Both the position numbers and the translations under genes were made by a program. Under the pieces are notes generated by a model. The model was not told the origin of the DNA. It searched no databases and saw only the letters and a program-made list of their open reading frames with translations. 32,000 bases of DNA, taken from positions 896,689 to 928,688 of the forward strand of contig CP064967.1 in the NCBI GenBank assembly GCA_016699265.1, given 5' to 3'. Of the stretch, positions 3,285 through 24,272 are shown piece after piece; the first letter of the stretch is position 1; the number at the start of each line of letters is the position of its first letter. Origin of the DNA: Candidatus Saccharimonadota bacterium (lineage in GTDB: Bacteria; Patescibacteriota; Microgenomatia; UBA1406; GWC2-37-13).

Positions 3285-3408
3285 TGGTTGAAAAGTTATG
3301 AAGGTTGTAAAGTTAAAAAGCTTGTTAACTGGTTAATTAGTTAGCCGGTTAACCAGCATACTCACAAACAAACCTTTAAAAACCTGTAACTTTCTGAACT
3401 TTTAAAAT
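3285..3408. repeat. GTT/AAC-word imperfect palindrome filling the nrdJ-pduO spacer
   Basis: Left half has GTT about every 8 nt (ggttgaaa agttatgaa ggttgtaaa gttaaaaa...). Right half has AAC words (caaac aaac ctttaaaaac ctgtaac tttctgaac). The arms are approximate reverse complements. Shares agttatgaag and aaaacctgtaactttct[g/t]aac with the element at 21992..22120. Confidence 0.7.
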
Positions 3409-3413
3409 TATTT

Positions 3414-3923
3414 ATGGCTATTTATACGCGTACTGGGGATAAAGGGACGACCGGTCTCTTCGGAGGGAAGAGGGTCTCCAAAGCTAGTGTGCTGATTGAG
3501 GCTGCGGGAGTAATTGACGAACTTACAACGTATGTGGGTTATGTTGCGCAAGCAATTCCCGGCGTTGAAACACAAAAATCTTTAGTAGAAATACAAAAAG
3601 ATCTTTACAGAATAATGTCGGTTGTCGCCGGAGCAAATATACCTATAGCGTATCTCGAGGGTAGAGCCAAAGATTTTGAACTAAACATAGATAGAATCAC
3701 GCTAAAGCTGTCAAATCTCAATAGCTTTATATTACCTGGTGGAACCAAAGATGCGTCCCTATTTCATATCCTTAGAGTATTGACTCGCAGGGCAGAAAGA
3801 GCAGTTGTTTCGGCAAAATCTGACGCTATAATAATTCAGTACTTAAATCGGTTATCCGATTTATTTTTTACATTAGCACGGAAATACGCAAAAGGAAAAG
3901 AAATTAAAATAAAAACTTTGTAA
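3414..3923 (+). CDS. pduO: PduO-type ATP:cob(I)alamin adenosyltransferase
   Basis: N-terminus is MAIYTRTGDKGTTGLFGG, the family signature. The 169-aa length and helical-bundle C-terminus (LTRRAERAVV, LNRLSDLFF) also fit. Confidence 0.9.
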   Translation: MAIYTRTGDKGTTGLFGGKRVSKASVLIEAAGVIDELTTYVGYVAQAIPGVETQKSLVEIQKDLYRIMSVVAGANIPIAYLEGRAKDFELNIDRITLKLSNLNSFILPGGTKDASLFHILRVLTRRAERAVVSAKSDAIIIQYLNRLSDLFFTLARKYAKGKEIKIKTL

Positions 3924-3925
3924 AT

Positions 3926-4057
3926 GCTGGTTTGGGGAATCCCGTGTAATTCGGGAACAGTGCCGCTACGGTGATGCCGGTGGTCAGCAATCAGGAGTCA
4001 GATCTCAGAACTGACGACTGAAAACTGAAAACTAGTTAGTCCGACTACCAAACAAGC
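3926..4057 (+). promoter_or_regulatory. Cobalamin riboswitch (candidate) in the leader of 4083..5204
   Basis: 3934..3976 reads ggggaatcccgtgtaattcgggaacagtgccgctacggtgatg. This is colinear with the conserved core of cobalamin riboswitches (AGGGAA-NCC-GUG-NAA-UC-GG-AC-G-CCGC-AC-GU-A, compare the E. coli btuB leader). AGTCAG, the start of a B12 box, lies at 3996..4001. A closing helix pairs gctggtttgg (3926..3935) with ccaaacaagc (4048..4057), 9 of 10 bp. The 3' half of the B12 box is divergent. Confidence 0.6.
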
Positions 4058-4082
4058 TCAAAACCCCGAGCAGGGAATATAT

Positions 4083-5204
4083 ATGACAGTAGAACAAGTA
4101 CGACCTCGCGTCGAAGAAGCTAAGCCTCAGACAACCTCAGATATTTTTAAGTACTACAGCGTTCCCAACGAAATCGCGTTTCTTGACAGAGTTCGTCAAG
4201 GTGGTGTTGGCCTGCAAGATTCTGACATATATGTCCAGGAAAATGTCGAGCGCTTTTTAGGAGAGTTTGCGGGGCAGGTCCCTTACACTAGAATTTCATA
4301 TCTGCAGAAGGACGGCCTACTAAAGTATGCTGGAATGGACCTTACCGAATCGTACAGGAGTACTAGCAAAAACAGTGATAGGGAGCTTGATGAATGTATC
4401 GGGTATGAAAAAATTCAGGCAGGATTTGGAAACGGCGCTCATACGGCTGTGTGGATTAGCCCACCCAAAATCGCGGACTACGGGTTTGTATTCTTCTTTC
4501 AGAGAGACCCACAAAATCCAGAACATGTCCGTGAATTCATACTTAGATATAATGAGCGTAAGGGCGATCTGGCAACGAGCCAAAAGATTCTGGACAGGAT
4601 CGATCCACTCCAGTCGTTCTCAACAGATAGAGATTATCTGCAGCGGCCACACATATTTTTCGAACAAGACGGTAACCATCCAACTCTACAAACTATCATG
4701 GCTGGTGTTGGAATTTCTTCCAAGCAGATTGAAAGCTCCAAACAATTTGAAGAGCGAGTCCGCGCCGAACTTGGTGGCTGGACCAATCAATATTCTCAAG
4801 CAGTTTCTCATGGAGATGTTGATCTGGCTAAATTAGTACTCCGATCGATTTATAACCGAGCATGCGAAATTAAAAAAGAGATCGATGGTGGTGCGGGCAC
4901 ATATGCTCCACCTAGGGCGCTTCCTATTGACGGCACTTTACTACACTTTTATGCGAAGCAGGAAAGACCAGTGAGTCAGGGGAGCTGCCCTGTCTCACAA
5001 ACCAACTTTGAAGATCCTTTTAGTCCAACCTCTATCATGGACCAACTCGTTGCAGGAAATACACTAAACAACGTCGTCACGGAGACTCAACATTTCACAT
5101 GCCCAAACTGTAATCACAAAGCAGATGGACCCGTAGGCGATCAGTGTCCTTCATGCAGTATTACCCGCGCTCAATGGGCAGAAAAGGGCAATAAGGTCTG
5201 TTAA
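4083..5204 (+). CDS. Orphan cytoplasmic protein with C-terminal zinc ribbon (CPNC-x11-CPSC), riboswitch-controlled
   Basis: 373-aa ORF with no hydrophobic segment and no family I recognise. The C-terminus is HFTCPNCNHKADGPVGDQCPSC. Starts 25 nt after the predicted riboswitch closing helix. Confidence 0.75.
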   Translation: MTVEQVRPRVEEAKPQTTSDIFKYYSVPNEIAFLDRVRQGGVGLQDSDIYVQENVERFLGEFAGQVPYTRISYLQKDGLLKYAGMDLTESYRSTSKNSDRELDECIGYEKIQAGFGNGAHTAVWISPPKIADYGFVFFFQRDPQNPEHVREFILRYNERKGDLATSQKILDRIDPLQSFSTDRDYLQRPHIFFEQDGNHPTLQTIMAGVGISSKQIESSKQFEERVRAELGGWTNQYSQAVSHGDVDLAKLVLRSIYNRACEIKKEIDGGAGTYAPPRALPIDGTLLHFYAKQERPVSQGSCPVSQTNFEDPFSPTSIMDQLVAGNTLNNVVTETQHFTCPNCNHKADGPVGDQCPSCSITRAQWAEKGNKVC

Positions 5205-5609: not shown

Positions 5610-5693
5610 CGTATATCGTATAAGGTATTTGGTATTTTGTATAAAATCCCACGCAAAAACATACGAGATACGTCATACGGTATACGAAATACG
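5610..5693. repeat. GTAT/ATAC heptad palindrome, empty copy 1
   Basis: Built as 5 x NNNGTAT-type heptads (cgtatat cgtataa ggtattt ggtattt tgtataa), a 17-nt centre, then 5 x ATAC heptads (catacga gatacgt catacgg tatacga aatacg). Fills the spacer between convergent stop codons. Confidence 0.85.
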
Positions 5694-8666: not shown

Positions 8667-8748
8667 TATCGCGTATCGTGTATCGTGTATCGCGCATCTC
8701 AAGAGCGTCCTTGCGTTAAACGTTACGCGATTTGCGTTTCGCGACGTA
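8667..8748. repeat. TATCGYG-word heptad palindrome
   Basis: Left arm tatcgcg tatcgtg tatcgtg tatcgcg (8667..8694). Right arm cgcgatt tgcgttt cgcgacg (8726..8746) pairs with it, including G-U positions. Fills the spacer between two minus-strand genes. Confidence 0.7.
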
Positions 8749-9207: not shown

Positions 9208-9282
9208 GAGAGTATTATAACACTATAAGATAGATTATTCAATGTCCTCAAGTATTACTCCTTAATTTGCTACTATATAAGT

Positions 9283-10420: not shown

Positions 10421-10587
10421 TTTCAAAGCTCAAATGTCAAATAAAATCTGAAGCCAAAAGCTAGAACTTTTAAATTTTAGGTTTTTAAATTTATTTGATA
10501 TTGGGATTTTGAGTTTAATGCAGTTTGATGTATTGCATAATTGTGTATATGTCATTATTATTTGTGCATAAGTTATCCACATATACA
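10421..10587. other. Candidate oriC / dnaA promoter region: AT-rich tract plus DnaA-box cluster
   Basis: Perfect DnaA box TTATCCACA at 10573..10581. An inverted box tgtgcataa (TTATGCACA on the other strand) at 10563..10571. A one-mismatch box at 10542..10550. The tract 10460..10500 is very AT-rich. All lie directly upstream of dnaA. Confidence 0.65.
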
Positions 10588-11922
10588 ATGTCTGAGGCTG
10601 AATGGAACCAATTTTTACTTTCTTTAATCGAGGGAGCTGATAAAAACCCTGTTCTTTTCTCTATTCTTAAGCAGGTCTCTCTGTTGTCGGTAAGCGAGAG
10701 GTCGGTAGTACTCTCAACCGACAGTCAAGGGTTCTTTATATTCATTCAAAAGCGCGTACCCGAGATTGAGGAGAGACTGTCTCTTTTTACAAAAAAAACT
10801 CTTAGCATTGAGGTTGTTGTCTCTACTACTCAGGAAAAAAAGATGAAAGAGGCGCCTCTGCTGTCGTTTGAACCGTCCCAAGAAGATGTCTATCGAAAGG
10901 CTGGACTTAACGGAAAGTACTCTTTCGATAACTTTGCGGTTTCAGGTTCAAATCAGGTAGCGTATGCGGCAGCACAGGCCGTAGCAGATAATCTTTCAAA
11001 GGCATATAACCCACTTTTTTTGTATGGTGGGGTGGGTGTAGGGAAGACGCACTTAGCCCAAGCCGTTGCGAGTAAAATTTTGGGAGACGACCCTCAAAAG
11101 AGGGTTGTTTTTAGTCCGGGAGAGCAGTTTACAAACGAACTGATCGAATCTATTCGTGAAAAAAACACAGCAAAATTTCGTAAAAGATATAGACATCTAA
11201 ACCTCTTAATCGTTGACGATATTCAGTTTATCGCAGGTAAAAACACGGTTCAGGAGGAGTTTTTTCACACCTTTAATGCGGTTGTGTCGGGCGGAGGGCA
11301 GATTATTTTTACCTCAGATCGTCCACCTCAGGACATTAAAAACTTAGAAGACCGTCTTCGTTCGCGTTTTGCAGGCGGACTAACTGTCGATGTTCAGCCT
11401 CCAGATTTTGAATTAAGAACGGCAATTCTTCTTATTAAAGCTAAAGAGAAGGGTATAGAGCTGGGAATTGATCTGGCCAGAATTATAGCCGAGCAGGTAT
11501 CCGACTCCCGCTCACTAGAGGGTACCCTTCTCTCTATATACGCCCGAACTCTTGGCAGGGAGGAGAAAATAACTCTTACTGTGGTTGAGTCTTTCTTCCA
11601 TACGGAAAGTGAGGTGCGCCCTAAAATTAGGATTACCCCTCATGAGATACTTAATGTTGTTTGTTCATACTACAACATCAAACAATCTCAGTTAAAAAGT
11701 CCGATCCGCTCAGAGTCACTATCTTTACCACGACAGGTTACTATGTTTTTACTTAGAAGAGAGTTAAATATGAAACACCAAGAGATAGCCAACTTACTTA
11801 AAAGAAGAGACCACACTACTATTATGCATGGGGTTGAAAAGATAAATAAAATGCTCGTTAAAGACGATTTTTTTAAGAAAGAGGTTGATAGAATAATCCA
11901 AACCCTCCACCTCTCCACATAG
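10588..11922 (+). CDS. dnaA: Chromosomal replication initiator DnaA
   Basis: Walker A GGVGVGKTHL, Walker B LLIVDDIQF, and a C-terminal DNA-binding helix-turn-helix (HTTIMHGVEKI). Start trimmed to MSEAEWNQF. Confidence 0.95.
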   Translation: MSEAEWNQFLLSLIEGADKNPVLFSILKQVSLLSVSERSVVLSTDSQGFFIFIQKRVPEIEERLSLFTKKTLSIEVVVSTTQEKKMKEAPLLSFEPSQEDVYRKAGLNGKYSFDNFAVSGSNQVAYAAAQAVADNLSKAYNPLFLYGGVGVGKTHLAQAVASKILGDDPQKRVVFSPGEQFTNELIESIREKNTAKFRKRYRHLNLLIVDDIQFIAGKNTVQEEFFHTFNAVVSGGGQIIFTSDRPPQDIKNLEDRLRSRFAGGLTVDVQPPDFELRTAILLIKAKEKGIELGIDLARIIAEQVSDSRSLEGTLLSIYARTLGREEKITLTVVESFFHTESEVRPKIRITPHEILNVVCSYYNIKQSQLKSPIRSESLSLPRQVTMFLLRRELNMKHQEIANLLKRRDHTTIMHGVEKINKMLVKDDFFKKEVDRIIQTLHLST

Positions 11923-11987
11923 ATTACACAAACTATCTACATGCTAAAAGGCGGTGTTTGTCTTGTCTTGAAAATGAGAACTGTTTT

Positions 11988-12004
11988 TTATACACTTATC
12001 CCCA
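11988..12004 (+). promoter_or_regulatory. Two overlapping near-consensus DnaA boxes in the dnaA-dnaN spacer
   Basis: TTATACACT at 11988..11996 and TTATCCCCA at 11996..12004, each one mismatch from TTATNCACA. Confidence 0.4.
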
Positions 12005-12029
12005 CGTACTACTACTACGAAGTTTATAT

Positions 12030-13133
12030 ATGAAAATAATTTTAGACAAAGAACAATTACTGAATAACGTCCAGATATCCACACGCTTCACGTCGAAAAG
12101 ACTCTCAACAATACAATCACTACAAGGAGCTATGTTTACCATCGAAGGAGACAAGCTCACAATATACGCGACAGACCTAAATACCAACTTTAGCTCAACA
12201 ACAAAACTAAAGACAACCTCCAAAGAGAAGAAGTCGTTTGTAACCGATCCCAAAAAACTTGCTGAATTCCTCGCCTTACTAGCACCAGGAGACATCGTAC
12301 TTATAGTTGAAGAAAAAAAAATTACCATACAGAAAGAAAAAAACCAAGGATTTTTTAACATAATGGAAAGTGGCGACTTTCCATTACCACCAAAACTAAT
12401 CGAAAAACCAATAGTTCTAAAAGCCGAACAATTTAAAAAAACACTTCCACTTGTTTTATTTGCTGCATCAAGAGACGAAGCAAGACCGGCTTTATCCGGC
12501 GTAAACTTTGTATCCAGTGATGGGGAGCTTGTTACAGTAGCCACAGACGGATTTAGACTGTCTTTACTTAAAGAAAAAAATACACAGAAAGTACCTTCGA
12601 TGTTGGTTCCTAGAGTATTTTTTGAGGAGGTATTAAGTGGGCTTAAGGAAGAAGATGAGATTAACTTTACAACCTCCGAAAAGGAAAAGATGGTTAAGTT
12701 TTCAACCCCTACGAAGGAGTATTACAGCCGAGTAATTGAAGGGGCGTTTCCTCCCTTTGAAAAGGTTATACCAACCGAAAAAAAACAAACAATTATCACA
12801 GATCGAGAGGAACTATTAAGAAACATTAAAATAGCGTCGTTATTCGCCCGTGAACAATCAAATATTATTATTCTTAAGGGTGAGAAAGGCGTGATTCAAA
12901 TACGTCCAAAAACCGACAACAGTGATGAAAACACCTCAACTCAAGACGCAGAGATTGAGGGAGACGCTATTCAAGTAGCGTTCAACGCAAGATTTTTATT
13001 AGATTTTCTCCAGAACGTATCAGGTAAAAAAATAACCATTGAGCTGCTCAGATCAGACGCCCCTACGGTATTTAAGACGGATAATCAGAAAAACTTCATC
13101 CATATAATTATGCCCGTTAGGATTCAATCCTAA
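12030..13133 (+). CDS. dnaN: DNA polymerase III beta sliding clamp
   Basis: MKIILDKEQLLNNVQ start, ~367 aa, three-domain pattern with ATDGFRLS and a RSDAPTVF...IIMPVR C-terminus. Lies downstream of dnaA. Confidence 0.9.
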   Translation: MKIILDKEQLLNNVQISTRFTSKRLSTIQSLQGAMFTIEGDKLTIYATDLNTNFSSTTKLKTTSKEKKSFVTDPKKLAEFLALLAPGDIVLIVEEKKITIQKEKNQGFFNIMESGDFPLPPKLIEKPIVLKAEQFKKTLPLVLFAASRDEARPALSGVNFVSSDGELVTVATDGFRLSLLKEKNTQKVPSMLVPRVFFEEVLSGLKEEDEINFTTSEKEKMVKFSTPTKEYYSRVIEGAFPPFEKVIPTEKKQTIITDREELLRNIKIASLFAREQSNIIILKGEKGVIQIRPKTDNSDENTSTQDAEIEGDAIQVAFNARFLLDFLQNVSGKKITIELLRSDAPTVFKTDNQKNFIHIIMPVRIQS

Positions 13134-15427: not shown

Positions 15428-16264
15428 ATGGAGCAACATCCTATTCCGCGCCAAATAACGAGCTTCGAGTTTAAGCTGATAGGTTTCATGACGCTTCACC
15501 AATTCATATATCTATTAGTCTTTATTCCGTCAGGATTTGCGGTATATAAATTAATTCCCATTCCGTTTGTTAATATACTCATTGGATTTATGATCTCCTC
15601 CATTGGAGTGCTTCTAGCTTTCTTACCAATAAACGATCGACCGCTTGACGTGTTTATCAAAAATCTTTTTAAACGACTCACATCTCCGACTCAGTATATG
15701 TACAAAAAGTCGAATCACCCACTTTATTTTTTGAACAATTTATATTTTGTCAACGACCCTCACAAAGTTTTAGCGCATGTAGAGTCGCAGGAGATGTTGT
15801 CAGAGTATCTGAAAACAAATACGCTTCCTCCAGTTACAGTCCAAACAGACACACGTTCCTTAGTAGGAGTTCAGGAAGCTTTTAAAAATCCTACCCTAAA
15901 TCAACAATCAACTACCGCAACCACAGTTTCCGCAACAGAGAGTCCTTCAACTAGCTATCCACCAAAACAGGGAGAGCCGTCGCGCATAGCTCAACAACCA
16001 TTCTTTCTTGGAGTGGTAAAAAACAATAAAGAGACGCCGCTTCCCGAGATTCTGGTGTACATTAAGGATGAACGAAACAACCCAGTCAGGCTCTTAAAAA
16101 CAAATCCGCACGGTGTTTTCGCTACCTACAACTCACTACCTGGGGGTGAATATTTTGTAGAAGCGAAGGACCCGAGAGGTTCGCATCTTTTTGATACAAT
16201 GAAAGTAAGGCTCGATGATACAAATCCCTCCACCTTTAATGTAGTTTCAAAAGGATTATTATGA
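15428..16264 (+). CDS. PrgI-family membrane protein (T4SS-associated) with C-terminal carboxypeptidase-regulatory-like beta domain
   Basis: N-terminus IPRQITSFEFKLIGFMTLHQFIYL plus two TM segments, as in PrgI-family proteins. The C-terminus (PEILVYIKDERNNPV...NPHGVFATYNSLPGGEYFVEAKDPRG) resembles CarboxypepD_reg folds. Confidence 0.6.
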   Translation: MEQHPIPRQITSFEFKLIGFMTLHQFIYLLVFIPSGFAVYKLIPIPFVNILIGFMISSIGVLLAFLPINDRPLDVFIKNLFKRLTSPTQYMYKKSNHPLYFLNNLYFVNDPHKVLAHVESQEMLSEYLKTNTLPPVTVQTDTRSLVGVQEAFKNPTLNQQSTTATTVSATESPSTSYPPKQGEPSRIAQQPFFLGVVKNNKETPLPEILVYIKDERNNPVRLLKTNPHGVFATYNSLPGGEYFVEAKDPRGSHLFDTMKVRLDDTNPSTFNVVSKGLL

Positions 16265-16920
16265 CAAATTCCACCACCAAACAGTCACCGACAAAAGCAA
16301 CGACTCAGTCGTTCACAGAGATAGAGGAAATACAGGACGATGTTGTTTTGATGAGGGACTTTTCGGCAGTAACTGTCGTTGAGGTTGGAGCGGTTAATTT
16401 TTGGCTATTGTCGCAGGACGAGCAGGTTTCGATGATTCAGTCTTATTCAAATCTTCTAAACTCATTGTCTTTTCCAGTGCAGATTCTTATTGTTTCCAAA
16501 AAAATGGACATCTCGGTTTACCTTGAATACATTCAGGAACGTTTGCGGAATCAACCGGATGCACAGCAACAAAAAAGACTTCAAAGCTACCAAGATTTTA
16601 TTAAGAATACGGTAAAGAAAACAACAATTTTAGAGAAGCGATTCTTTTTTGTGGTTCCTTTTAGTCCTCTGGAAATGGGTGTCAGCGGAGCAAATACGAA
16701 GGGTTTGAAAAAAGAATATGTTTTTGCACGCGCAAAGACAGCGCTATATCCCAAAAGAGATAATCTAATTAGGCTTTTAACAAAGACCGGTCTACGGGCT
16801 ACTCCTCTCGCAAAACAAGGGTTGGTCGAGATTTATTACAACCTATACAACATGTCGGCAACTGGAAGACAGCTCGGACCAATCGATAGCTATACCGACG
16901 TTGTAATGACGGGAAAATAA
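16261..16920 (+). CDS. T4SS-module partner protein, unknown function
   Basis: Its start overlaps the upstream stop (ATGA), and its stop lies 2 nt before the VirB4-like start. The pattern VTVVEVGAVNFWLLSQDEQ...SYSNLLNSLSFPVQILI is reminiscent of VirB4/TraC N-terminal domains (by eye only). Confidence 0.6.
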   Translation: MTNSTTKQSPTKATTQSFTEIEEIQDDVVLMRDFSAVTVVEVGAVNFWLLSQDEQVSMIQSYSNLLNSLSFPVQILIVSKKMDISVYLEYIQERLRNQPDAQQQKRLQSYQDFIKNTVKKTTILEKRFFFVVPFSPLEMGVSGANTKGLKKEYVFARAKTALYPKRDNLIRLLTKTGLRATPLAKQGLVEIYYNLYNMSATGRQLGPIDSYTDVVMTGK

Positions 16921-16922
16921 TT

Positions 16923-18674
16923 ATGTTCGGATTAAATAAAAATAAACAACAATCGAAAGCACGGCCGACACATTCTGCCGGAAATGTTGCTGATTTGATG
17001 GCGAATGGCTCGGTCTCGATTAAAGATCTCATAGCCCCAGCGTTCGTAGAAGTAGACTTCAACCATATTAGAATAGACGAGAGGTATTACAAAACGCTCT
17101 ATGTGGTCGGCTACCCACGATACGTTTCTGCCAACTGGCTATATTCACTTATCACATTCGATCATCCTCTTTATATCTCGATGTATATTTATCCAACAGA
17201 ATCGAAAAACGTTCTTGAGGAGCTTAAGCGTAAGATTGGAGAGATGGAGGCAACGATCGAGGGAGACATGAAGGAAGGTAAGGTTGTTGACCCGACCGTT
17301 CAGGTTGCGCTTGATGACGCCCTTGGACTACAGGCAGAGCTAGCAAAGGGAGCGGAGAGATTTTTTCAGTTTGGGCTCTACATCACTCTTCCAGCAGACT
17401 CCAAAGAGGAGCTTGAGCAGATTTCTAAACAGGTCGAGTCAATCTTAGCTTCGCTTTTAATCGTGTCTCGCGCGGCGACGTTAGAGATGGAGGAAGGATT
17501 CAAGTCCACACTTCCAATGTTCTATGACAAGCTAAGCGTTTGGCGAAATATCGACAGCACGTCGCTCGCCATGACCTTTCCATTTTCCACCGCCTCTTTG
17601 ACCAGAAATGAAGGAATTCTATACGGTGTAAACCAGAACGACAGTAGTTTGATCATCTTCGATCGTTTTACTCTTGAGAACGCCAATTCCGTGATACTGG
17701 GGAAATCGGGTGGAGGAAAGAGCTTTATGGTGAAGCTTGAAGCTCTGAGACTCTTATCGATGGATGTAGACGTCATAATAATAGATCCTGAAAATGAGTA
17801 CAAAAAACTAGCAGAGTCAGTAGGAGGAGAGTTCGTTGAGTTCTCGGTTAAGTCGCAGTATAAAATCAATCCATTTGACCTAATTAAAGACAATCCTGAA
17901 CCGGATGAGCTTCAGAATAAGATTCTCGATCTACATTCGCTAATGCGAGTCATGATGGGTGACTTAACGCCAGCACAAGACGCACTCCTCGATCGAGCTC
18001 TCGTAGCTGTATATGAACAAAAAGGAATTACGCAGGATCCGGCTAGTTTTAAAAATGAAGCACCTCTCTTGGAAGATCTTTTCAAGGTGTTTTTGGGAAT
18101 GGAGACCGCTGAGGGCAAAGAGCTTGCGGGACGTTTGGAAAAGTACGTAAAGGGTTCTGCTGCGGGAATATTTAATGAAAGATCGAACTTTAATATAAAA
18201 AATAAATTCACAGTTTTTGGAATAAGAGACTTGGAGGAGAATCTCCGTCCGGTTGCGATGTATATAGTCCTAGATTATATCTGGAATACAGTAAGACGAG
18301 AGAAAAAAAAGAGGATTCTCATCGTTGATGAAGCTTGGTATATGATGAAGAACAAGGACTCGGGGGCTTTTCTTTTTAACTTTGCAAAACGTTCGCGAAA
18401 ATATCTCCTCGGCTTAACAACGGTTACGCAGGACGTAGAAGATTTTATAGCTACAAATGAAGGGCGTGCAATAATTACAAACTCCAGTCTTCAGATAATT
18501 CTTAAACAGTCAACTGCCGCAGTGGATGCAATTACAAAGACATTTGCATTGACCGGTGGAGAGCGTCATTTTCTACTAGGTGCTGGAGTTGGAGAAGGAC
18601 TATTCTTCGCAGGACAAGCTCATGTAGGATTTAAGGTCATTGCCTCCGAGGACGAAAAAGCAACTATTGAGTAA
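16923..18674 (+). CDS. virB4: VirB4/TraC-family type IV secretion ATPase
   Basis: Walker A GKSGGGKSF, Walker B RILIVDEAWYMM, a gram-positive VirB4-like N-domain (YYKTLYVVGYPRYVSANWL) and the distal motif LGLTTVTQD. Confidence 0.8.
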   Translation: MFGLNKNKQQSKARPTHSAGNVADLMANGSVSIKDLIAPAFVEVDFNHIRIDERYYKTLYVVGYPRYVSANWLYSLITFDHPLYISMYIYPTESKNVLEELKRKIGEMEATIEGDMKEGKVVDPTVQVALDDALGLQAELAKGAERFFQFGLYITLPADSKEELEQISKQVESILASLLIVSRAATLEMEEGFKSTLPMFYDKLSVWRNIDSTSLAMTFPFSTASLTRNEGILYGVNQNDSSLIIFDRFTLENANSVILGKSGGGKSFMVKLEALRLLSMDVDVIIIDPENEYKKLAESVGGEFVEFSVKSQYKINPFDLIKDNPEPDELQNKILDLHSLMRVMMGDLTPAQDALLDRALVAVYEQKGITQDPASFKNEAPLLEDLFKVFLGMETAEGKELAGRLEKYVKGSAAGIFNERSNFNIKNKFTVFGIRDLEENLRPVAMYIVLDYIWNTVRREKKKRILIVDEAWYMMKNKDSGAFLFNFAKRSRKYLLGLTTVTQDVEDFIATNEGRAIITNSSLQIILKQSTAAVDAITKTFALTGGERHFLLGAGVGEGLFFAGQAHVGFKVIASEDEKATIE

Positions 18675-18725
18675 CTTCATTGTATAATTATCTTCACTAA
18701 TGGGTTTACCTTGAGCGGAAGCGAA

Positions 18726-18798
18726 GGGCCTGTGGCGCAATGGCCAGCGCGTCTCTATGGCATAGAGAAGGTTACGGGTTCGAGTCCCGTCAGGTCCA
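18726..18798 (+). tRNA. tRNA-Ala (anticodon GGC)
   Basis: Hand-folded cloverleaf. Acceptor GGGCCTG/CAGGTCC with the G3:U70 alanine identity pair. D stem GCGC/GCGC. Anticodon stem TCTCT/AGAGA with loop ATGGCAT. T arm ACGGG-TTCGAGT-CCCGT. CCA is not encoded. Confidence 0.9.
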
Positions 18799-18803
18799 CA
18801 ATT

Positions 18804-18812
18804 TGATATAAT
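18804..18812 (+). promoter_or_regulatory. Extended -10 promoter element ahead of tRNA-Lys
   Basis: TGATATAAT matches TGnTATAAT exactly and lies 33 nt upstream of the tRNA 5' end. Confidence 0.4.
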
Positions 18813-18844
18813 GAAGTTCTTCTAACCGATAGAATTACGTTCCT

Positions 18845-18918
18845 GGGCCCCTAGCTCAACTGGTTAGAGCAGTAGCCTTTTAAGCTATTGGTTCTGGGTT
18901 CGAGTCCCAGGGGGCTCA
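18845..18918 (+). tRNA. tRNA-Lys (anticodon UUU)
   Basis: Hand-folded. Acceptor GGGCCCC/GGGGCTC. D arm GCTC-AACTGGTTA-GAGC. Anticodon stem GTAGC/GCTAT with loop CTTTTAA. T arm CTGGG-TTCGAGT-CCCAG. CCA is not encoded. Confidence 0.9.
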
Positions 18919-18944
18919 CAATATTCAGATTGTCATAACGCTCT

Positions 18945-19085
18945 ATGCCAATCCCGGTATGGACATTAGGTATAGAAAACTTCAAACAGCCAAGAGTGGC
19001 TTACGCACTATTTTTTATGATGGTAGTATTGGCGAGCGCGTTTATGTGGAGGAGCCAAAAAAAAGAAGTTAGCCCACTGACGTAG
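18945..19085 (+). CDS. Possible 46-aa single-TM peptide
   Basis: Unlisted small ORF MPIPVWTLGIENFKQPRVAYALFFMMVVLASAFMWRSQKKEVSPLT, with one hydrophobic helix followed by basic residues. No Shine-Dalgarno site. Speculative. Confidence 0.2.
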   Translation: MPIPVWTLGIENFKQPRVAYALFFMMVVLASAFMWRSQKKEVSPLT

Positions 19086-19101
19086 ACCTCGTAGGTCTAC
19101 G
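19081..19101. terminator. Hairpin between the convergent small ORF and TPR gene
   Basis: cgtagacct-cgt-aggtctacg, a 9-bp perfect inverted repeat. The A8 run at 19067..19074 gives a U-run on the minus transcript, but about 6 nt beyond the stem. Confidence 0.4.
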
Positions 19102-19110
19102 GAGGGTAAA

Positions 19111-19512
19111 TTAAAGCGCGGGATCGATTTGTTTGGCTTTGTTTAGATAGTCTAGAGCCTTGGTTTCGTTTCCAGCCTGAGAGTAGAGAAGGTAGAGGTT
19201 GTAAAGGGCATCCCGTGATGAAGGATTCTTCTGGAGGAGATTCTCAAGTTCTTGAATCTTGTTTTTGCGAAGAGTGTCGCTGTAAAAAACCTCTTCTTCT
19301 ATGCGTTTACCGTACAAATTTTTATATAGAATTAAGTCTTTCTTAAAAGTTGGAAGCGAACGAACACTTTGTAGATATGGTACGATTGCATTCTTTTCGT
19401 TGACAATCTGTTTGAAGTACAGCGGTGAGATGAGCTGAGAAAACACAAGGTTGATAACCATATATGTTGCGGCTAACGACAAAAATGTTCCCCAAGCAAA
19501 TTTTTTAATCAT
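19111..19512 (-). CDS. Membrane-anchored TPR-repeat protein
   Basis: N-terminal TM segment (FAWGTFLSLAATYMVINLVF). The C-terminus is TPR-like (ALYNLYLLYSQAGNETKALDYLNKAKQIDP). Confidence 0.65.
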   Translation of the reverse strand: MIKKFAWGTFLSLAATYMVINLVFSQLISPLYFKQIVNEKNAIVPYLQSVRSLPTFKKDLILYKNLYGKRIEEEVFYSDTLRKNKIQELENLLQKNPSSRDALYNLYLLYSQAGNETKALDYLNKAKQIDPAL

Positions 19513-19516
19513 GTGT

Positions 19517-19621
19517 TTCGTATACGGTATAACGTATGACGTATTTCGCCTGCCTGCCGGCAGACATGTATATTGTACCTAATCTCAATACGTTATACGA
19601 AATACGGTATACGGAATACGA
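19517..19621. repeat. GTAT/ATAC heptad palindrome, variant with GC-palindrome centre
   Basis: Left arm ttcgtat acggtat aacgtat gacgtat (19517..19544). Right arm aatacgt tatacga aatacgg tatacgg aatacga (19587..19621). The 42-nt centre contains the perfect palindrome ctgccggcag (19554..19563). Occupies a divergent intergenic region. Confidence 0.8.
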
Positions 19622-19633
19622 TATAATGAAAAT

Positions 19634-21988
19634 ATGGATCCTACTTTGACCTCGACAGCATTGAATGGGCTAATTAATGTGCTGATCGCTCTCCTAGCCG
19701 CATTATCTGCCGGTGGAGCAACGTGGCTGATGATGTATCTGATCATAATCTATGTTCGCATGAAAAAGCGCGAACATATATCTATGTCGATGGTGACAAT
19801 GGAGATAAAGATCTCGAAGGACAATGAGGTTAAGGTGGATGCTGCAGAACAGATGTTTGCAGCCCTAGCCTCTCTTAAAAAGGGAGGATTCTGGGCATTT
19901 TTGGAAGCGGGAGATTCGCTTGCTTTTGAGATTGTTGGTAAAAACGCGGACATACGTTTTTATGTGTCCGCTCCGTCAAAGGTAGCCGACCTTGTTGAAA
20001 AAACAATTTATGGGTACTATCCAGCAGCCGACATTAAGAGAGTTGATGAGCCCAATATCTTTATTGAAAACGGAAAGGTAAGTTACGCTGCCTTTATTGC
20101 AAAAGAAGCTCCATATATGCCACTTAAGACCTACAAAGATATGCCGACCGATAGTCTTGCCTCAATAACTTCTGCGCTTTCTAAGATGGAGGAGGAAGAA
20201 GGAGCGCTTGTACAGATCCTGATTAAACCATCGGACGGCAAGTGGAAAAAGGCCGGAAAGTCCTACGTCGCCAGCGTTAAGAAGAATGAGGCCAATCCAG
20301 AGAAGGCTACCTTCAAAAGCGATCCAAAACTTCTTGAGAGAATTGAGGATAAAAGCGGGAAGCAAGGATTCGACACCGCTCTACGCATAATTGTCTCTTC
20401 TCGGTCCAAGGATAGCGCAGATTTACATCTGCGAAATATCAAGTCTGCCTTTACTCAGTTTAACTCGGACTCAAACAGCCTGAAGGGCGTAAAAATACGG
20501 TTTAAGGGCGGCTTCATGCTAGACGCTATCTATAAGTTCTTTCCAGTATTTGAGCTGCCATTTTTTAGAACCTTCTCTGTATTTTCAAGCGAAGAAATAG
20601 CTTCTTTTTTCCATTTCCCAAACAAAACCATCGAAACGCCACACGTTGCATGGCTAAAGGCAAAGAGTGCTCCTGTGGCCTCAGAGGTACCTCAAGAAGG
20701 CGGCACAGAGATTGGTATGGGCTACTTCCGTGGCATACGACGACCCGTGCATATCGGACTTCCCGATCGTCAAAGGCACGTCTATATAATCGGAAAAACG
20801 GGAACGGGTAAGTCATATCTTCTACAGAACATGATCGACCAAGACATACGAGCAGGTCGCGGAGTCTGCGTGATCGATCCACACGGAGATTTAATCGACG
20901 ATGTCCTAAAGTACATCCCACCGGAAAGAGCGGAGGACGTAATTTACTTTGATCCTGCAGATTCAGAGCGTCCCATGGGGCTAAATCTGCTAGAAGCACA
21001 AACCGAGGATCAGAAACATTTCATAACCACAGCAATTATCAACCTTATGTACAAGCTGTACGATCCTCAAAGAACCGGAATCATCGGTCCTCGATTTGAA
21101 CATGCGGTGCGAAATGCTATGTTGACCGTCATGTCAGAAGAGGGGGCAACATTCGTGGAGGTTATCCGCATTCTCACCGATGCAAAATACGTTCAAGAAC
21201 TTCTACCAAAGGTTACGGACCCAATCATTCGAAGATACTGGACCGATCAGATCGCGCAGACCTCGGACTTTCATAAGTCGGAGGTACTTGACTACATCGT
21301 CTCGAAGTTCGGTCGTTTCGTCACGAATAAACTTATGAGAAATATCATCGGACAGTCAAAGTCTGCTTTTGATTTTAGAAAGGTGATGGATGAGGGAAAG
21401 ATCCTTCTCATAAATCTCTCCAAAGGACGTCTTGGAGAGGAGAACTCAAACTTCCTTGGCCTGACCTTAATCCCTAAGATTCTCGTTGCCGCAATGAGTC
21501 GACAGGAGATCCCTGAAGATCAACGTCGAGACTTCTTCCTATACGTCGATGAGTTTCAGAACTTTGCTACTCCAGACTTTGCAACGATTCTGTCTGAGGC
21601 TAGAAAGTACCACCTCAACCTAACGGTAGCTAATCAGTTTATTGGTCAGGTCGAAGAAGAGGTCAAAAATGCGATATTTGGTAACGTAGGAACGATGATT
21701 ACGTACAGAGTCGGAGTTACCGACGCATCTTACTTACAGCGAGAGTACCAGCCCGTATTTGGAGAGTCTGACCTTATAAACATCGAGCGATTTCACGTAT
21801 ACATGAAGACGATAGTCAATAACGAACCAGTACCTCCTTTTTCCGTAGACTTAACTCGCGATGTGAACGCTCTTAAAAAGACACAAAACCTTAAGATCGC
21901 ACAGGCAATTATTCAGTTATCTCGTCTCAAATACGGAAGACCGAGAGAGCTTGTGGAGGCAGAGATTACGCAACGGGCGAGACTGTAG
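19634..21988 (+). CDS. VirD4/TraG/TraD-family coupling-protein-like ATPase with N-terminal TM anchor
   Basis: N-terminal TM segments, Walker A IIGKTGTGKSYLL, Walker B FFLYVDEFQNF and a LTVANQF motif. The size (784 aa) and architecture fit T4SS coupling proteins. Confidence 0.7.
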   Translation: MDPTLTSTALNGLINVLIALLAALSAGGATWLMMYLIIIYVRMKKREHISMSMVTMEIKISKDNEVKVDAAEQMFAALASLKKGGFWAFLEAGDSLAFEIVGKNADIRFYVSAPSKVADLVEKTIYGYYPAADIKRVDEPNIFIENGKVSYAAFIAKEAPYMPLKTYKDMPTDSLASITSALSKMEEEEGALVQILIKPSDGKWKKAGKSYVASVKKNEANPEKATFKSDPKLLERIEDKSGKQGFDTALRIIVSSRSKDSADLHLRNIKSAFTQFNSDSNSLKGVKIRFKGGFMLDAIYKFFPVFELPFFRTFSVFSSEEIASFFHFPNKTIETPHVAWLKAKSAPVASEVPQEGGTEIGMGYFRGIRRPVHIGLPDRQRHVYIIGKTGTGKSYLLQNMIDQDIRAGRGVCVIDPHGDLIDDVLKYIPPERAEDVIYFDPADSERPMGLNLLEAQTEDQKHFITTAIINLMYKLYDPQRTGIIGPRFEHAVRNAMLTVMSEEGATFVEVIRILTDAKYVQELLPKVTDPIIRRYWTDQIAQTSDFHKSEVLDYIVSKFGRFVTNKLMRNIIGQSKSAFDFRKVMDEGKILLINLSKGRLGEENSNFLGLTLIPKILVAAMSRQEIPEDQRRDFFLYVDEFQNFATPDFATILSEARKYHLNLTVANQFIGQVEEEVKNAIFGNVGTMITYRVGVTDASYLQREYQPVFGESDLINIERFHVYMKTIVNNEPVPPFSVDLTRDVNALKKTQNLKIAQAIIQLSRLKYGRPRELVEAEITQRARL

Positions 21989-21991
21989 AGG

Positions 21992-22120
21992 AGTTATGAA
22001 GTTGCGAAAGTTGAAAGTTAGAAGGTTTGTTTTATGGGTTTGTCGGTTAACCAACAAACCAGTTAACCAGTTAACGCGCTAACAAACTTTCAAAACCTGT
22101 AACTTTCTTAACCTTTAAAC
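21992..22120. repeat. GTT/AAC-word imperfect palindrome, second copy
   Basis: Left arm agttatgaagttgcgaaagttgaaagttagaaggtttgtt, right arm aacaaactttcaaaacctgtaactttcttaacctttaaac, centre rich in ggttaacc/agttaacc. Same family as 3285..3408. Confidence 0.7.
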
Positions 22121-22128
22121 CAAAGTGT

Positions 22129-22503
22129 ATGATTAAATCTTTTGAAGCTACTTTAACCAAACGAACTGAGTTAACCCACGACATTAATCTATTTAACTTT
22201 GAGATTGTAAACGATACGCTGCAGTTCCTCGCCGGACAGTATGTAATCATGTTGATAACTTTTCCTGATGGGACGGTAGCTCGGCGACTTTACTCGATTT
22301 CAAGCGAATCCCAAAACACAAAAAGTTTCGATCTACTTGTAAAGAGAATTCCAGGAGGTATGGCATCAAACTATCTGGCGGGACTTCCGATTGGAGGGAA
22401 GGTTTCTTTTCAAGGACCAGCAGGGGTCTTTTCTATGAAGGACAGCGATCCTACCAAATCAAAGGTTTTTAGCGACGAGTACGGGTATTGCGCCGATCTA
22501 TAG
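22129..22503 (+). CDS. FNR-like FAD/NAD(P)-binding oxidoreductase, FAD-binding half (frame broken at T-run 22466..22470)
   Basis: RLYSISS (the RxYS FAD motif), GGMASNYL and a beta-barrel pattern. The frame ends 10 codons after a T5 run. Confidence 0.8.
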   Translation: MIKSFEATLTKRTELTHDINLFNFEIVNDTLQFLAGQYVIMLITFPDGTVARRLYSISSESQNTKSFDLLVKRIPGGMASNYLAGLPIGGKVSFQGPAGVFSMKDSDPTKSKVFSDEYGYCADL

Positions 22504-22504
22504 T

Positions 22505-22882
22505 ATGCTAAGGTCCAGAATTTTGGATGGTGTAACCAATGAAAAATGGTATCTCTTTTGGGGGGCACGAACAAAGAACGACCTACACTGGGTAAAGGAA
22601 CTGGAGGAGATGCGGCGAAAGAATCCATCTTTTAAGTATTCATTCTGTCTCTCGAGAGAGTCGGACCCTTCACAGAAAACAATGCCACCTGAGTGCGCGT
22701 TGGGGCGAATAGATGCCAGTTTTCAAAATGACATTTTAGAGTCGGTAAAAGGGAACACAGAGCTCCTTAATGGATATGAGTACTACATCTGTGGAAGTAT
22801 TAATGCGGTTGAGACGCTCCGTCAGTCACTCATCGGCGAAGGAGTCGAAAAGAAGAATATACACTCGGAGAAATTCATTTGA
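22505..22882 (+). CDS. FNR-like oxidoreductase, NAD(P)-binding half
   Basis: The same frame read upstream gives FLATSTGIAPIYSMLRS (GTGIAP-type nucleotide-binding motif), then LFWGARTKNDL and YYICGS. It joins the N-terminal half if the T5 run is read as T6. Confidence 0.8.
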   Translation: MLRSRILDGVTNEKWYLFWGARTKNDLHWVKELEEMRRKNPSFKYSFCLSRESDPSQKTMPPECALGRIDASFQNDILESVKGNTELLNGYEYYICGSINAVETLRQSLIGEGVEKKNIHSEKFI

Positions 22883-22917
22883 CTCGTATACGGTATTTGG
22901 TATCTCGTATTCCGTAT
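22883..22917. repeat. Left heptad arm flanking the four-helix-bundle gene
   Basis: ctcgtat acggtat ttggtat ctcgtat tccgtat, with GTAT at an exact 7-nt period, five units. Abuts the ORF stop codon (22918..22920). Confidence 0.85.
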
Positions 22918-23283
22918 TCAGGACTTTGTTTGGGAGGATTTCAATAATCCATTAAGTAATTTATGGACTCTCACAGTTTTTTCTGCAAACTGTCTGAATA
23001 TCACATCATTGAAATAGTGCAGATCTCTAGCTATAAGCAATTGGTTCTGTAATTCGGCGACTGATCCGATTGAGATCGTATAGAAACGATTTTTATCGGC
23101 TGATGTTCTTTTGTAGAATCCTTCGGCAACGTTACTTGTAATGGAAACGACCGCTCTTCTGAGTTGGTCAATTAGTCCATAACGCTCATGTTTTGGAAAA
23201 TGATCTGTAGCTTTGTAGATTTCTATTACCAATTCGTGTCCAATTTTCCATGCGTCTAAGTGGGTAAATGAACGAATCTTCAT
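22918..23283 (-). CDS. Four-helix-bundle protein (23S rRNA intervening-sequence protein / Avd-like family)
   Basis: MKIRSFTHLDAWKIGHELVIEIYKATDHFPKHERYGLIDQLRRAVVSITSNVAEGF...SIGSVAELQNQLLIARDL is the classic signature of this family. Start trimmed to ATG 23283. Confidence 0.9.
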   Translation of the reverse strand: MKIRSFTHLDAWKIGHELVIEIYKATDHFPKHERYGLIDQLRRAVVSITSNVAEGFYKRTSADKNRFYTISIGSVAELQNQLLIARDLHYFNDVIFRQFAEKTVRVHKLLNGLLKSSQTKS

Positions 23284-23315
23284 ACGAAATACCTTATACG
23301 ACATACGGAATACGT
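23281..23315. repeat. Right heptad arm flanking the four-helix-bundle gene
   Basis: catacga aatacct tatacga catacgg aatacgt, with ATAC at an exact 7-nt period, five units. It is the reverse-complement partner of 22883..22917. Its first three bases are the ORF start codon. Confidence 0.85.
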
Positions 23316-23373
23316 TGTCTACGGACTATATGCTACAAAACATCAAGATCGGAGCGTTCTAAAAGGCGGTAGC

Positions 23374-24240
23374 CTAGAATGATGTGAAGAAAAACTCAGC
23401 CGGTATCTGTGGATACGACTGGAAAAGTTGTACCTTCTTAGTAACTCCTGTTCTTGTTGTGGCTTGTGAGGTCACTGTTTGTCCCGATGCCTGTAAGGTG
23501 CTTGTTCCCACAAGTCCAAGGGTCGTGCTTGAAGGCCCACCGATTGAGATATATCTTACGATGAGAAAACGTGGATTGGAGGCAATGGTCACGGGTATAT
23601 TTGAGGTTCTGCATCGATAGGTAGTTCCATTCACCGTTGAGGAGGATACGCTTCCAATCTGTGTTCCAGATGAGCTAAAGTTATTGCCCGTGTCTGCGAT
23701 GTATCTCGTAACTCCCGTAGTTGTCACGACAGCTATATCAAGGACCATGTTATTGCAGTTGGCGCTACCAGAGACATCATAGGCGATGCTTACGTTATTA
23801 TTTGACGCAGGATTTGAGATTAACTTGGTGACGCTATTATAGGAGCCAAGATAGAACGTGAAGCCCTCGCCAGAGGATAGAGAAGGTGAGACAAACTGCG
23901 CGCTCGCTGCGGAGGTTAAACTTGTTGAACCAGAGGTAATTGTTGAGGAGAGACTACCGATACTGGATAGATTGGCTATATTTGATCCGCTCTTTAAGGA
24001 TGCTTCGATGCCTGCTTCTGCTGCGGCTAGAGCTTTCTGGTTCTCCTCTTCAAGTTTGGTAAGTTGAGTATCGGTCCTTGCGGTGAAGGTAATGGTTAAG
24101 ACGATCGTGATGGCAATAGCCATGATCATAACCATAATTAGTAGAATCTGACCGGCTTGGTATGCCGTATTTAGTATATGGTATCTCGTATCTAGCAGAT
24201 TGTTTTTTCTTATGTTTGTGTTTTGGTTTGGTGTTTTCAT
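23374..24240 (-). CDS. PilX/TadG-like pilus-associated protein (N-terminal hydrophobic helix, Ser/Thr-rich beta body)
   Basis: QAGQILLIMVMIMAIAITIVLTITF resembles the PilX_N / TadG N-terminal helix, followed by a short coiled segment and a Ser/Thr/Gly-rich domain. The first ~28 codons run through a heptad element, so the start is uncertain. Confidence 0.5.
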   Translation of the reverse strand: MKTPNQNTNIRKNNLLDTRYHILNTAYQAGQILLIMVMIMAIAITIVLTITFTARTDTQLTKLEEENQKALAAAEAGIEASLKSGSNIANLSSIGSLSSTITSGSTSLTSAASAQFVSPSLSSGEGFTFYLGSYNSVTKLISNPASNNNVSIAYDVSGSANCNNMVLDIAVVTTTGVTRYIADTGNNFSSSGTQIGSVSSSTVNGTTYRCRTSNIPVTIASNPRFLIVRYISIGGPSSTTLGLVGTSTLQASGQTVTSQATTRTGVTKKVQLFQSYPQIPAEFFFTSF

Positions 24241-24272
24241 ACGATATACGGTATATGAAATACTAAATACTC
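24157..24272. repeat. GTAT/ATAC heptad palindrome bracketing the start of 23374..24240
   Basis: Left arm ttggtat gccgtat ttagtat atggtat ctcgtat (24157..24191). Right arm catacga tatacgg tatatga aatacta aatactc (24238..24272). The 46-nt centre holds the first codons of the ORF. Confidence 0.8.

Follow-up and report, generated by a model that had tools for sequence, protein, structure and literature searches.

Seven-nucleotide periodic hairpins in the spacers of a Microgenomates-group genome: candidate stems of intervening-sequence-type cassettes and of their gene-less derivatives

Intervening sequences (IVSs) of 23S rRNA that hold an open reading frame (ORF) for the S23p protein are known from Leptospira, Coxiella burnetii, Brucella and Azospirillum (Ralph & McClelland 1993, cited in PMC4990558). 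In the Coxiella IVS three to four copies of the heptamer GACAGAT precede the S23p ATG, the number of repeats varies between strains, a 28-bp stem is formed and the first of the repeats is where RNase III cuts (PMC4990558). Arrays of 7-nt units are also known from Xanthomonas campestris, which has 186 arrays of GGGAATC, mostly four units long; within the heptamer, positions 1-4 and 6 are the conserved ones (Rehm et al. 2015, PMC4692102). About 90% of them fall between genes, a short way past the upstream ORF, and their neighbours are mostly co-oriented; 70 convergent (inverted) pairs were counted (PMC4692102). Here we analysed a 32,000-nt stretch of contig CP064967.1 (the window), from a Microgenomates-group bacterium of the candidate phyla radiation (CPR/Patescibacteria), whose intergenic spacers hold imperfect palindromes built from short words at a period of 7 or 8 nt. 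We propose that these palindromes are the stems of IVS-type cassettes and of their ORF-less derivatives, and that the cores of their repeat units are read by a pentameric protein encoded by the cassette. This protein belongs to the PF05635 four-helix-bundle family (4HB; also named S23p, Avd-like or 23S rRNA-intervening-sequence protein). We give the combined statement a probability of roughly 0.6.

The elements built on the word GTAT comprise one cassette and four solo hairpins:

22918-23304, minus strand: 4HB gene, PF05635 (Pfam E 2.1e-33)
23281-23314, minus strand: cassette 5′ arm of five heptamers, CGTATnn as read on the gene strand, with the start ATG in the innermost unit or units
22883-22917, minus strand: cassette 3′ arm, again of five heptamers (nnATACG as read on the gene strand), abutting the stop codon
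5610-5693, unstranded: solo GTAT heptamer hairpin of 5+5 units without an ORF, filling a convergent spacer
13137-13214, unstranded: solo GTAT heptamer hairpin directly past the dnaN stop codon, near-identical to the copy at 5610
19517-19622, unstranded: solo GTAT heptamer hairpin in a divergent spacer, 4-5 units per arm and a loop of 38-50 nt
24157-24272, unstranded: solo GTAT heptamer hairpin, five units and a loop of ~54 nt, overlapping the called N-terminus of ORF 23374-24240

A preliminary description of this DNA had listed the pair 22883/23281 among the GTAT spacer hairpins. The spacer hairpins of that list stand; this pair does not belong with them, since its arms bracket the PF05635 gene. 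The same description had suspected a connection with four-helix-bundle genes, and the full-length element indeed carries one. A complete element consists of about five heptamers, a 4HB gene that starts in the last of them, and about five inverted heptamers that abut the stop codon. The true start of the window gene is likely the ATG at 23283, and a 99%-identical homologue, P0002, has 121 aa. Such an arrangement is that of the 23S rRNA IVS, in which a PF05635 ORF of ~120-130 aa likewise occupies the loop of an inverted-repeat stem in an element of ~430 nt: the arms of the window cassette bracket the ORF, contain its start codon and abut its stop codon, as they also do in 72 related cassettes. 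As in Coxiella, tandem heptamers stand right before the start, here as five CGTATnn.

Every metagenome contig with exactly this version of the 4HB protein (L001-L006) is short, 1.1-1.7 kb, and has its ends at or near the heptamer arms. That every one of them is under 2 kb and ends there suggests that the repeats break short-read assemblies.

The spacer palindromes with periodic words of 7-8 nt that had been reported are real, each being found in the sequence at its position. Exact period-7 runs of GTAT occur at 5611-5642, 13138-13169, 22886-22917 and 24160-24191 (five units each) and at 19520-19544 (four units), and exact period-7 runs of ATAC at 5661-5692, 13188-13212, 19588-19619 and 23282-23313. 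We scanned the whole 32-kb window for 35-nt segments with at least 68% self-identity at a given lag, using 50 first-order Markov shuffles as the control. Seven such segments were found at lag 7 and one at lag 8, against none in the shuffles at either lag; lags 4-6 and 9-12 gave no self-similar segment. The periodicity therefore exceeds shuffled expectation, as had been claimed. Over whole spacers, lag-7 identity reached 0.47-0.59 (spacers 5607, 8657, 10427, 13134 and 19513) and lag-8 identity 0.51-0.52 (spacers 3283 and 21989), against a self-identity of ~0.25 for background spacers. The palindromes are thus made of intergenic heptamer arrays, in which 7-nt units that share a conserved core follow one another head to tail, and those of the window have 4-5 units, are degenerate at three positions and always come as inverted pairs.

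The arms of the window solos align with the arms of the cassette, with GTAT invariant every 7 nt. The copies at 5610 and 13137 are identical at 75 of 78 positions, and at one inner end three of the four solos still have the CGTATG unit of the start codon. We compared them with 80 genomic loci fetched around 4HB homologues (1.09 Mb; 567 confirmed homologue matches overall). Lag 7 was the best self-similarity lag on both gene flanks in 59 of the 77 loci usable for this test. Among 522 short-period arrays, 345 have period 7, and 194 of the period-7 arrays have a reverse-complement partner within 700 nt, compared with 14 in the control, for which the sequence was reversed. The array pairs fall into two size classes, ~49 with loops shorter than 150 nt and ~67 with loops of 340-460 nt; the former are the solos, of which the 1.09 Mb contain 49 without an ORF.

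A 4HB gene is enclosed by 72 of the 81 gene-enclosing heptamer inverted repeats. One further pair, with the different word AATTATC/GATAATT, encloses a divergent PF05635 member. On a Berkelbacteria contig (L033, 3395-3849) inverted AATTTCG-type arrays flank an ORF for a 95-aa GIY-YIG nuclease (Pfam E 1e-14), so that heptamer stems can hold cargo besides 4HB. Viral contigs scanned with the 4HB alignment yielded no relatives. The predominance of 4HB among the enclosed genes, together with the alignment of the arms, indicates that the window solos are the ORF-less form of the cassette. Most copies are solo hairpins between genes that are usually co-transcribed. We conclude that the GTAT family very probably consists of IVS-type cassettes and their ORF-less derivatives, and we extend this assignment with less assurance to the other period-7 words.

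The anatomy of the arms bears on what the repeats are for. Each unit has a conserved core of ~4 nt (0.91-0.98) and three variable phases (0.68-0.76). Over 48 related cassettes the arms are 73.6% complementary, in agreement with the earlier remark that the variable positions are often mismatched. On the gene strand, 78 mismatches are of the G·U type and 71 of the A·C type, which is no wobble excess. Inter-arm identity at the variable positions, with the 3′ arm reverse-complemented, was 0.734, as against 0.714 when the order of units was shuffled, and unit-by-unit register was significant (p≤0.05) in 0 of 45 elements. Having no preferred register, the arms are two independent arrays of one word and not a base-for-base palindrome. 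Both arms nevertheless carry the same word as a rule (GTAT/GTAT in 27 elements, GAAT/GAAT in 22, GTAG/GTAG in 6), mixed pairs being rare.

Array length is also constrained. The 5′ arms of cassettes with 2 to 7 units number 17, 18, 19, 26, 1 and 1, with a mode of 5, and only 2-4 of 84 cassette arms are longer than five units. Solo arms have 4-5 units in 43 of 49 and 41 of 49 cases on the two sides, and none has six. The conserved core, the lack of unit-by-unit complementarity and the cap at 4-5 units bear out the impression, already voiced in the preliminary description, of arrays of binding sites. Were pairing all that is selected for, the seven positions would be under equal constraint and changes would be compensated; a fixed 4-nt core within a drifting remainder therefore argues for a reader. 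The absence of unit complementarity and of a G·U bias further leads us to reject snap-back synthesis and ordinary terminators, and favours sequence-specific reading with a pitch of 7 nt.

The association of 4HB genes with heptamer arrays extends beyond CPR bacteria. Rfam identifies loci L091, L099 and L103/L104 as genuine 23S rRNA genes, each with a 4HB ORF between heptamer arms of ~5 units. The arm words of these rRNA IVSs are GACRGAN, TCAGAAG and ATCAGnn; the latter two, present in five copies each in true 23S rRNA IVS stems, repeat the TCAG word of a window palindrome at 3984-4040 described below. On cyanobacterial plasmids, 4HB genes lie between the subunit genes of ribonucleotide reductase (RNR), between cas10 and cmr3 or between cas6 and cas4, and are flanked by arrays of GGGAGTA/TCCCTAC, AGGAGAT/ATCTCCT or CTCTGCC. 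In Xanthomonas, GGGAATC array #15 (four units; supplementary table) lies 6 nt past bccP and overlaps the start codon of XCC0516 (PMC4692102), a 4HB gene whose product was crystallised as 2GSC; the paper draws no link between heptamer arrays and 4HB genes. In the literature that we searched on 4HB/S23p and on heptamer repeats, we found no link between arrays and PF05635 beyond the remark on Coxiella.

These arrays make 4HB the candidate reader, because the gene travels with them. Its structure points the same way. The AlphaFold (AF2) model of the window protein (pLDDT 93) has its best fold matches in 2GSC (XCC0516; TM 0.86/0.94), 2RLD (BT_0352) and Avd (4DWL/8UB7). The 2GSC deposit contains five chains, and XCC0516 is a homopentamer (PMC4990558), a number to be set against the 4-5 units of an arm. 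Avd is a pentamer too, and grips an RNA stem-loop via flipped-out bases (bioRxiv 10.1101/2023.10.23.563531). Moreover, two internal 4HB columns (S68 and T76 in the window protein, at the turn between helices 2 and 3) share more mutual information with the GTAT/GAAT word class than any others of the 114 columns, in a ranking that ignores phylogeny. On these grounds we suggest, tentatively and with the odds somewhat against us, that a 4HB pentamer reads the heptamer cores.

Such a mechanism would run as follows. The element sits in the sense direction behind its host gene and would be transcribed by read-through. Its arms, as in the rRNA IVS, would fold in the RNA into an imperfect stem of 28-35 bp, with core helices of 4-5 bp separated by mismatches of 2-3 nt, and this stem may be a substrate of RNase III like that of the Coxiella 23S rRNA IVS, for which cleavage has been shown. 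The 4-nt cores at a 7-nt pitch are putative sites for the 4HB homopentamer, with about one heptamer per subunit. On the 5′ arm a pentamer would cover its own start codon and could thereby autoregulate, and on solo sites it would modulate the processing or stability of the transcripts of the host operon.

A number of observations weigh against this proposal. Apart from the neglect of phylogeny in the column ranking, overall 4HB identity is 0.62 within and 0.58 between word classes, with no clear clade structure, and the window contains at least five word types for one 4HB gene. Solos match the word of a cassette at the same locus at 6/7 positions or more in 29% of cases, versus 14% for cassettes of other genomes, which is a modest excess. 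In locus L089 (Pseudanabaena galeata plasmid pPg_01, 300-870) the 4HB gene between cas6 and cas4 has 13 units of GCTAAAA upstream and 10 of GCCAAAA downstream, both arrays being direct so that no stem is possible, an indication that what is conserved alongside the gene is the array and not the hairpin. Array lengths differ elsewhere, mostly four units in Xanthomonas and up to 8-13 in cyanobacteria, so that "five units for five subunits" does not hold everywhere. We saw no target-site duplication around the two identical solos (5610 and 13137) and no transposase in the window, to which this check was confined, and the enclosed 4HB is not a known transposase. The period-8 family of the window has no ORF-bearing relative in our data. 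Finally, the authors of the Coxiella study doubt that S23p is translated (PMC4990558).

Could the stem itself be the functional unit? On this account the palindromes are purely structural RNA elements akin to repetitive extragenic palindromes (REPs), acting as RNase III processing sites, 3′-end stabilisers or insulators between cistrons, with words that no protein reads, the period a legacy of tandem duplication and 4HB an occasional passenger in the loop. The stems do fold well. Relative to mononucleotide shuffles, and on the better-folding strand of each spacer, folding z-scores were -7.2 (spacer 19513), -5.5 (5607), -4.8 (13134), -4.4 (3283), -4.1 (21989), -3.7 (24150), -3.3 (10427, plus strand) and -2.2 (8657), with energies of -45.6 kcal/mol for spacer 19513 and -28.7 kcal/mol for spacer 5607. 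The hairpins start a few bases past the upstream stop codon and occupy the whole spacer, mostly between co-oriented genes, and they persist in the spacers of relatives despite sequence change. One of them follows a riboswitch-like aptamer in the manner of an expression platform, and RNase III cleavage was demonstrated for the homologous rRNA IVS stem (PMC4990558). A structural role does not, however, account for the arms: selection for pairing would not fix a 4-nt core while leaving three phased positions free and uncompensated, and the sense strand would be expected to favour G·U over A·C, which it does not. The direct arrays of Pseudanabaena and the single array at XCC0516 cannot form a stem, and the origin of 72 of the 81 enclosed genes from one protein family is left unexplained. 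We regard this explanation as unlikely, although it survives better than the other alternatives.

In 73 of 80 cassettes the gene upstream has the same orientation as the 4HB gene, and 41 of 46 solos lie between co-oriented genes, background spacers being tandem in 397 cases, convergent in 74 and divergent in 111. The even spread over convergent, tandem and divergent spacers that the window had suggested thus does not generalise. Upstream neighbours belong to 81 different Pfam families. A thyA gene stands beside the 4HB cassette in 9 of 74 loci (L010, L011, L015, L022, L034, L079 and others), from several CPR lineages, and at least in L079 the dihydrofolate reductase gene lies beyond the cassette in the order thyA, 4HB, folA. 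The 4HB cassette prefers intercistronic gaps of operons.

Three relatives (L095, L096 and L097) are syntenic with the window over 8.4-18.7 kb at ~75% nucleotide identity. Their orthologous spacers also contain hairpins, with a different word or different unit sequences. Behind dnaN, where the window has five GTAT units, L095 has three to four with the same core and other variable positions, L097 an ACGCG-type word and L096 two units of GTAG. In spacer 8657 the word is TATCGYG for the window and of CG type for L097, and L095 has a period-8 GTT/AAC copy there; CG-type words are found in all five hairpin-bearing spacers of L097. L095 (921-1095) has a hairpin of ~100 nt in which AATTTYG/TTTGAAA heptamers surround a G+C-rich stem at the centre. 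The orthologous divergent spacers of the window (9208-9282) and of L097 (744-819) lack this hairpin, which is an insertion/deletion polymorphism. The divergent promoter-bearing spacer 14087-14237 is conserved and without a hairpin. Different words in orthologous spacers show turnover: copies are duplicated between sites within a genome and replaced over evolutionary time.

This turnover is what foldback DNA elements, or MITEs (miniature transposable elements with inverted repeats), would produce, with the arrays as multi-site transposon ends bound by a transposase or host factor, the solos as internally deleted, non-autonomous copies and 4HB as an accessory or cargo protein. The window resembles MITEs in part, having near-identical ORF-less copies with terminal inverted repeats at two loci. 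The polymorphism in L095, the differing hairpins at orthologous sites, the diversity of insertion contexts, the strand-symmetric mismatches (as expected of DNA) and the GIY-YIG nuclease ORF in one heptamer hairpin all fit mobile DNA. A transposase and a target-site duplication, in contrast, were not seen, and a split tyrosine integrase at 13221-14086 is the only recombinase that the window has. A pure DNA transposon would not be expected to lie so strongly in the sense direction of the gene upstream (73 of 80 cassettes), the thyA/4HB/folA arrangement (9 loci) suggests long vertical retention, and the rRNA copies demonstrably act as RNA (PMC4990558). This possibility is accordingly still less probable than that of a structural element.

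Ordinary rho-independent terminators, or chance low-complexity sequence, would suit a position downstream of genes in an AT-rich genome; either is very improbable. The stems are A+T-rich with phased mismatches and hence not G+C-rich, and no U-tract follows them. A terminator and promoter scan of the window returned 24 terminator-like sites against 17.7 ± 4.6 in shuffles, which is no enrichment, and no match of the scan corresponds to any full periodic palindrome; two small matches (8711-8730 and 8732-8744) lie inside the right arm of the element at 8667. Some of the hairpins are in divergent spacers, and both the lag-7 runs (7 versus 0) and the inverted partners (194 versus 14) exceed their controls. 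As the preliminary description had held, then, ordinary intrinsic termination does not account for the elements. A search of the whole window with Rfam 15 at gathering thresholds detected two tRNAs only, with no family at any hairpin and no rRNA. Hairpin-templated (snap-back) synthesis, also raised in that description, has the palindromic layout alone in its favour and can be dismissed as scarcely credible, since it would make the variable positions complementary whereas they are so at no register (0.734 versus 0.714; 0/45 significant), the arms reach an overall complementarity of 73.6% and they bracket a conserved gene.

The window holds six further elements, with other words:

8667-8745, unstranded: heptamer hairpin with the word TATCGYG; right arm with a CG core at period 7
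3984-4040, unstranded: heptamer palindrome, TCAG ×4 and CTGA ×3-4
10421-10517, unstranded: TCAAA/TTTGA hairpin of looser period 7 upstream of dnaA (lag-7 identity 0.51)
3285-3410, unstranded: period-8 GTT/AAC palindrome with a central GGTTAACC; GTT spacing 8, 9, 8, 12, 8, 8, 8
21992-22120, unstranded: second period-8 GTT/AAC palindrome
15341-15404, unstranded: direct array of CGTTAAT ×3 (period 8) plus one inverted copy, a weak member

The word list of the preliminary description holds as given, with the elements at 15371 and 10421 weak, and it was incomplete, the TCAG/CTGA palindrome at 3984-4040 having been missed. The element at 15371 has folding z-scores of -0.6 and -2.0 on its two strands, and that at 10421 is assigned to the heptamer class tentatively. 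The period-8 element at 3285 is 68% identical to 21989-22128, and a related copy is present in L095 at 260-399. Across the 1.09 Mb, period 8 is rare (32 arrays) and its inverted partners are not in excess. Period 8, which had been presented as part of one general class, therefore constitutes a separate, small and dispersed family. The GTT/AAC elements, and perhaps those at 10421 and 15371, are analogous hairpins of separate families for which a link to 4HB is only a candidate; that the period-8 family consists of IVS-type cassettes or derivatives has somewhat short of an even chance.

Two of these elements adjoin features of interest in themselves. A sub-threshold AdoCbl-II (B12) riboswitch aptamer lies at 3917-3994 on the plus strand (28.3 bits versus a gathering threshold of 36.5, E 6e-5), downstream of a cobalamin adenosyltransferase gene and upstream of an unannotated gene at 4083-5204. 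At its 3′ end the aptamer runs into the first units of the TCAG/CTGA palindrome, which stands where the expression platform would sit. The TCAAA/TTTGA hairpin precedes dnaA, and dnaA and dnaN are adjacent in 10525-13133, so that this region is probably the replication origin. A leader, GTTTGATGTATTGCA, just upstream of dnaA (spacer 10427-10524) is conserved in L095 and L097; the hairpin before it differs in each genome, the spacers being 98 nt (window), 320 nt and 155 nt.

Other observations concern the neighbours of the GTAT hairpins. ORF 23374-24240 on the minus strand encodes a 288-aa TadG/pilin-like membrane protein whose called N-terminus, MKTPNQ...DTRYHILNTAYQAGQ, crosses one arm and the loop of the hairpin at 24157 and begins at a CGTATG unit. 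Either translation in fact begins further downstream, or part of the hairpin has been taken over as coding sequence. A type IV secretion/conjugation-like cluster at 15428-21988 includes a PrgI-like protein, an ATPase of the VirB4/TraG type (16923-18674) and a coupling protein of the VirD4/TrwB type (19634-21988), and is broken by tRNA-Ala, tRNA-Lys and a GTAT hairpin.

Three genes of the window are split into overlapping or adjacent ORFs in different frames: a class II ribonucleotide reductase (855-3282), the tyrosine integrase (13221-14086) and an FAD/NAD-binding oxidoreductase (22129-22882). The oxidoreductase is a single intact 251-aa gene on L001-L006, which are from other samples, and the three splits are therefore probably assembly indel errors and not pseudogenes. 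Spacers 28186-28322 and 29369-29463 share ~95 nt, GACCTCCCCCGATGAAG...TTTTCAAGTTTTTC.GGTTTCATACAAAAAA, which encode the same N-terminus, MKPEKLEKK..SSGEVRS, on the minus strand. This points to small paralogous genes with mis-called or frameshifted starts. The idea that heptamers provide stop codons in all frames (7 mod 3 = 1) was dropped because many of the words contain no stop codon.

Two parts of the picture were known, separately: the S23p ORF within an inverted-repeat stem, and intergenic heptamer arrays. New are the cassettes outside rRNA as pervasive occupants of CPR spacers, their gene-less derivatives, and heptamer arms as a hallmark of the whole PF05635 family. The puzzle of S23p/4HB function dates from 1993, and heptamer repeats were described in 1990 (short tandemly repeated repetitive sequences, STRR) and in 2015 (Xanthomonas, Nostoc). 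STRR are heptamer repeats of heterocystous cyanobacteria. The present data tie 4HB proteins to heptamer repeats across CPR bacteria, Proteobacteria and Cyanobacteria, and in CPR genomes of ~1 Mb cassettes and solos explain a large share of the longer intergenic spacers. If the pentamer reads the arrays, protein and periodic nucleic acid would together make up a system that is modular by nature. A wider generalisation, that PF05635 pentamers (S23p and Avd relatives) are widespread readers of heptamer repeats, each taking 4-5 phased units of RNA or DNA, is doubtful at present. If true, gene and array would be a minimal travelling cassette that lodges in transcribed spacers and rRNA helices, and its ORF-less derivatives would account for the CPR hairpins, the Xanthomonas GGGAATC arrays, STRR-type repeats and the excess of heptameric simple repeats in bacteria.

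How close, then, are the window elements to described systems? The 23S rRNA IVS is the nearest, and the differences lie in location and state. The window copies stand between protein-coding genes and not in helix 45 or 25; with no rRNA in the window and protein-coding genes as neighbours, they are IVS-like and not IVSs in the strict sense. Window-type arms are ~74% complementary with phased mismatches, and most copies are ORF-less, so that the solos qualify only as derivatives of the S23p/4HB IVS-type element. Stem excision by RNase III is known for the rRNA copies and is a prediction for those of the window.

The GGGAATC arrays of Xanthomonas and the GGGGAYT arrays of Nostoc share with the window elements 7-nt units, 4-5 conserved positions, a usual length of four units and an intergenic location. 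They differ from them in having G-rich words that were studied as G-quadruplexes, in reaching up to 26 units and in being often unpaired (PMC4692102). Direct repeats of the heptamer TAACTGA, in arrays of 2-6 units, occur in intergenic sequence of Beggiatoaceae, cyanobacteria and Bacteroidetes (MacGregor 2015, PMC4679880). These arrays end just upstream of start codons, and a mobile repeat-binding protein was postulated for them, with no mention of 4HB in the paper or its supplement (PMC4679880). Unlike the arms of the window elements, they are direct and not inverted.

As short, ORF-less, multi-copy intergenic hairpins that follow stop codons, the solos also resemble REPs, bacterial interspersed mosaic elements (BIMEs) and MITE-type repeats (REPIN, Correia, ERIC). 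Like those, they plausibly stem from a protein-coding relative or are served by one. They are set apart by the lack of a RAYT or transposase, of a visible target-site duplication, and by an internal 7-nt periodicity with words that vary within one genome. Avd, from diversity-generating retroelements, is a structural homologue of the window 4HB protein (4DWL/8UB7), near whose gene, unlike that of Avd, there is no reverse transcriptase. For the putative reading of the cores, the regulators TRAP and HutP offer an analogy of mechanism. The 11-mer TRAP reads (G/U)AG repeats, and HutP reads UAG every 7 nt. One site per subunit, a short core, a fixed pitch and free spacers would be common to all three, whereas the heptamer arrays, unlike the targets of TRAP, HutP and Avd, are arranged in inverted pairs.

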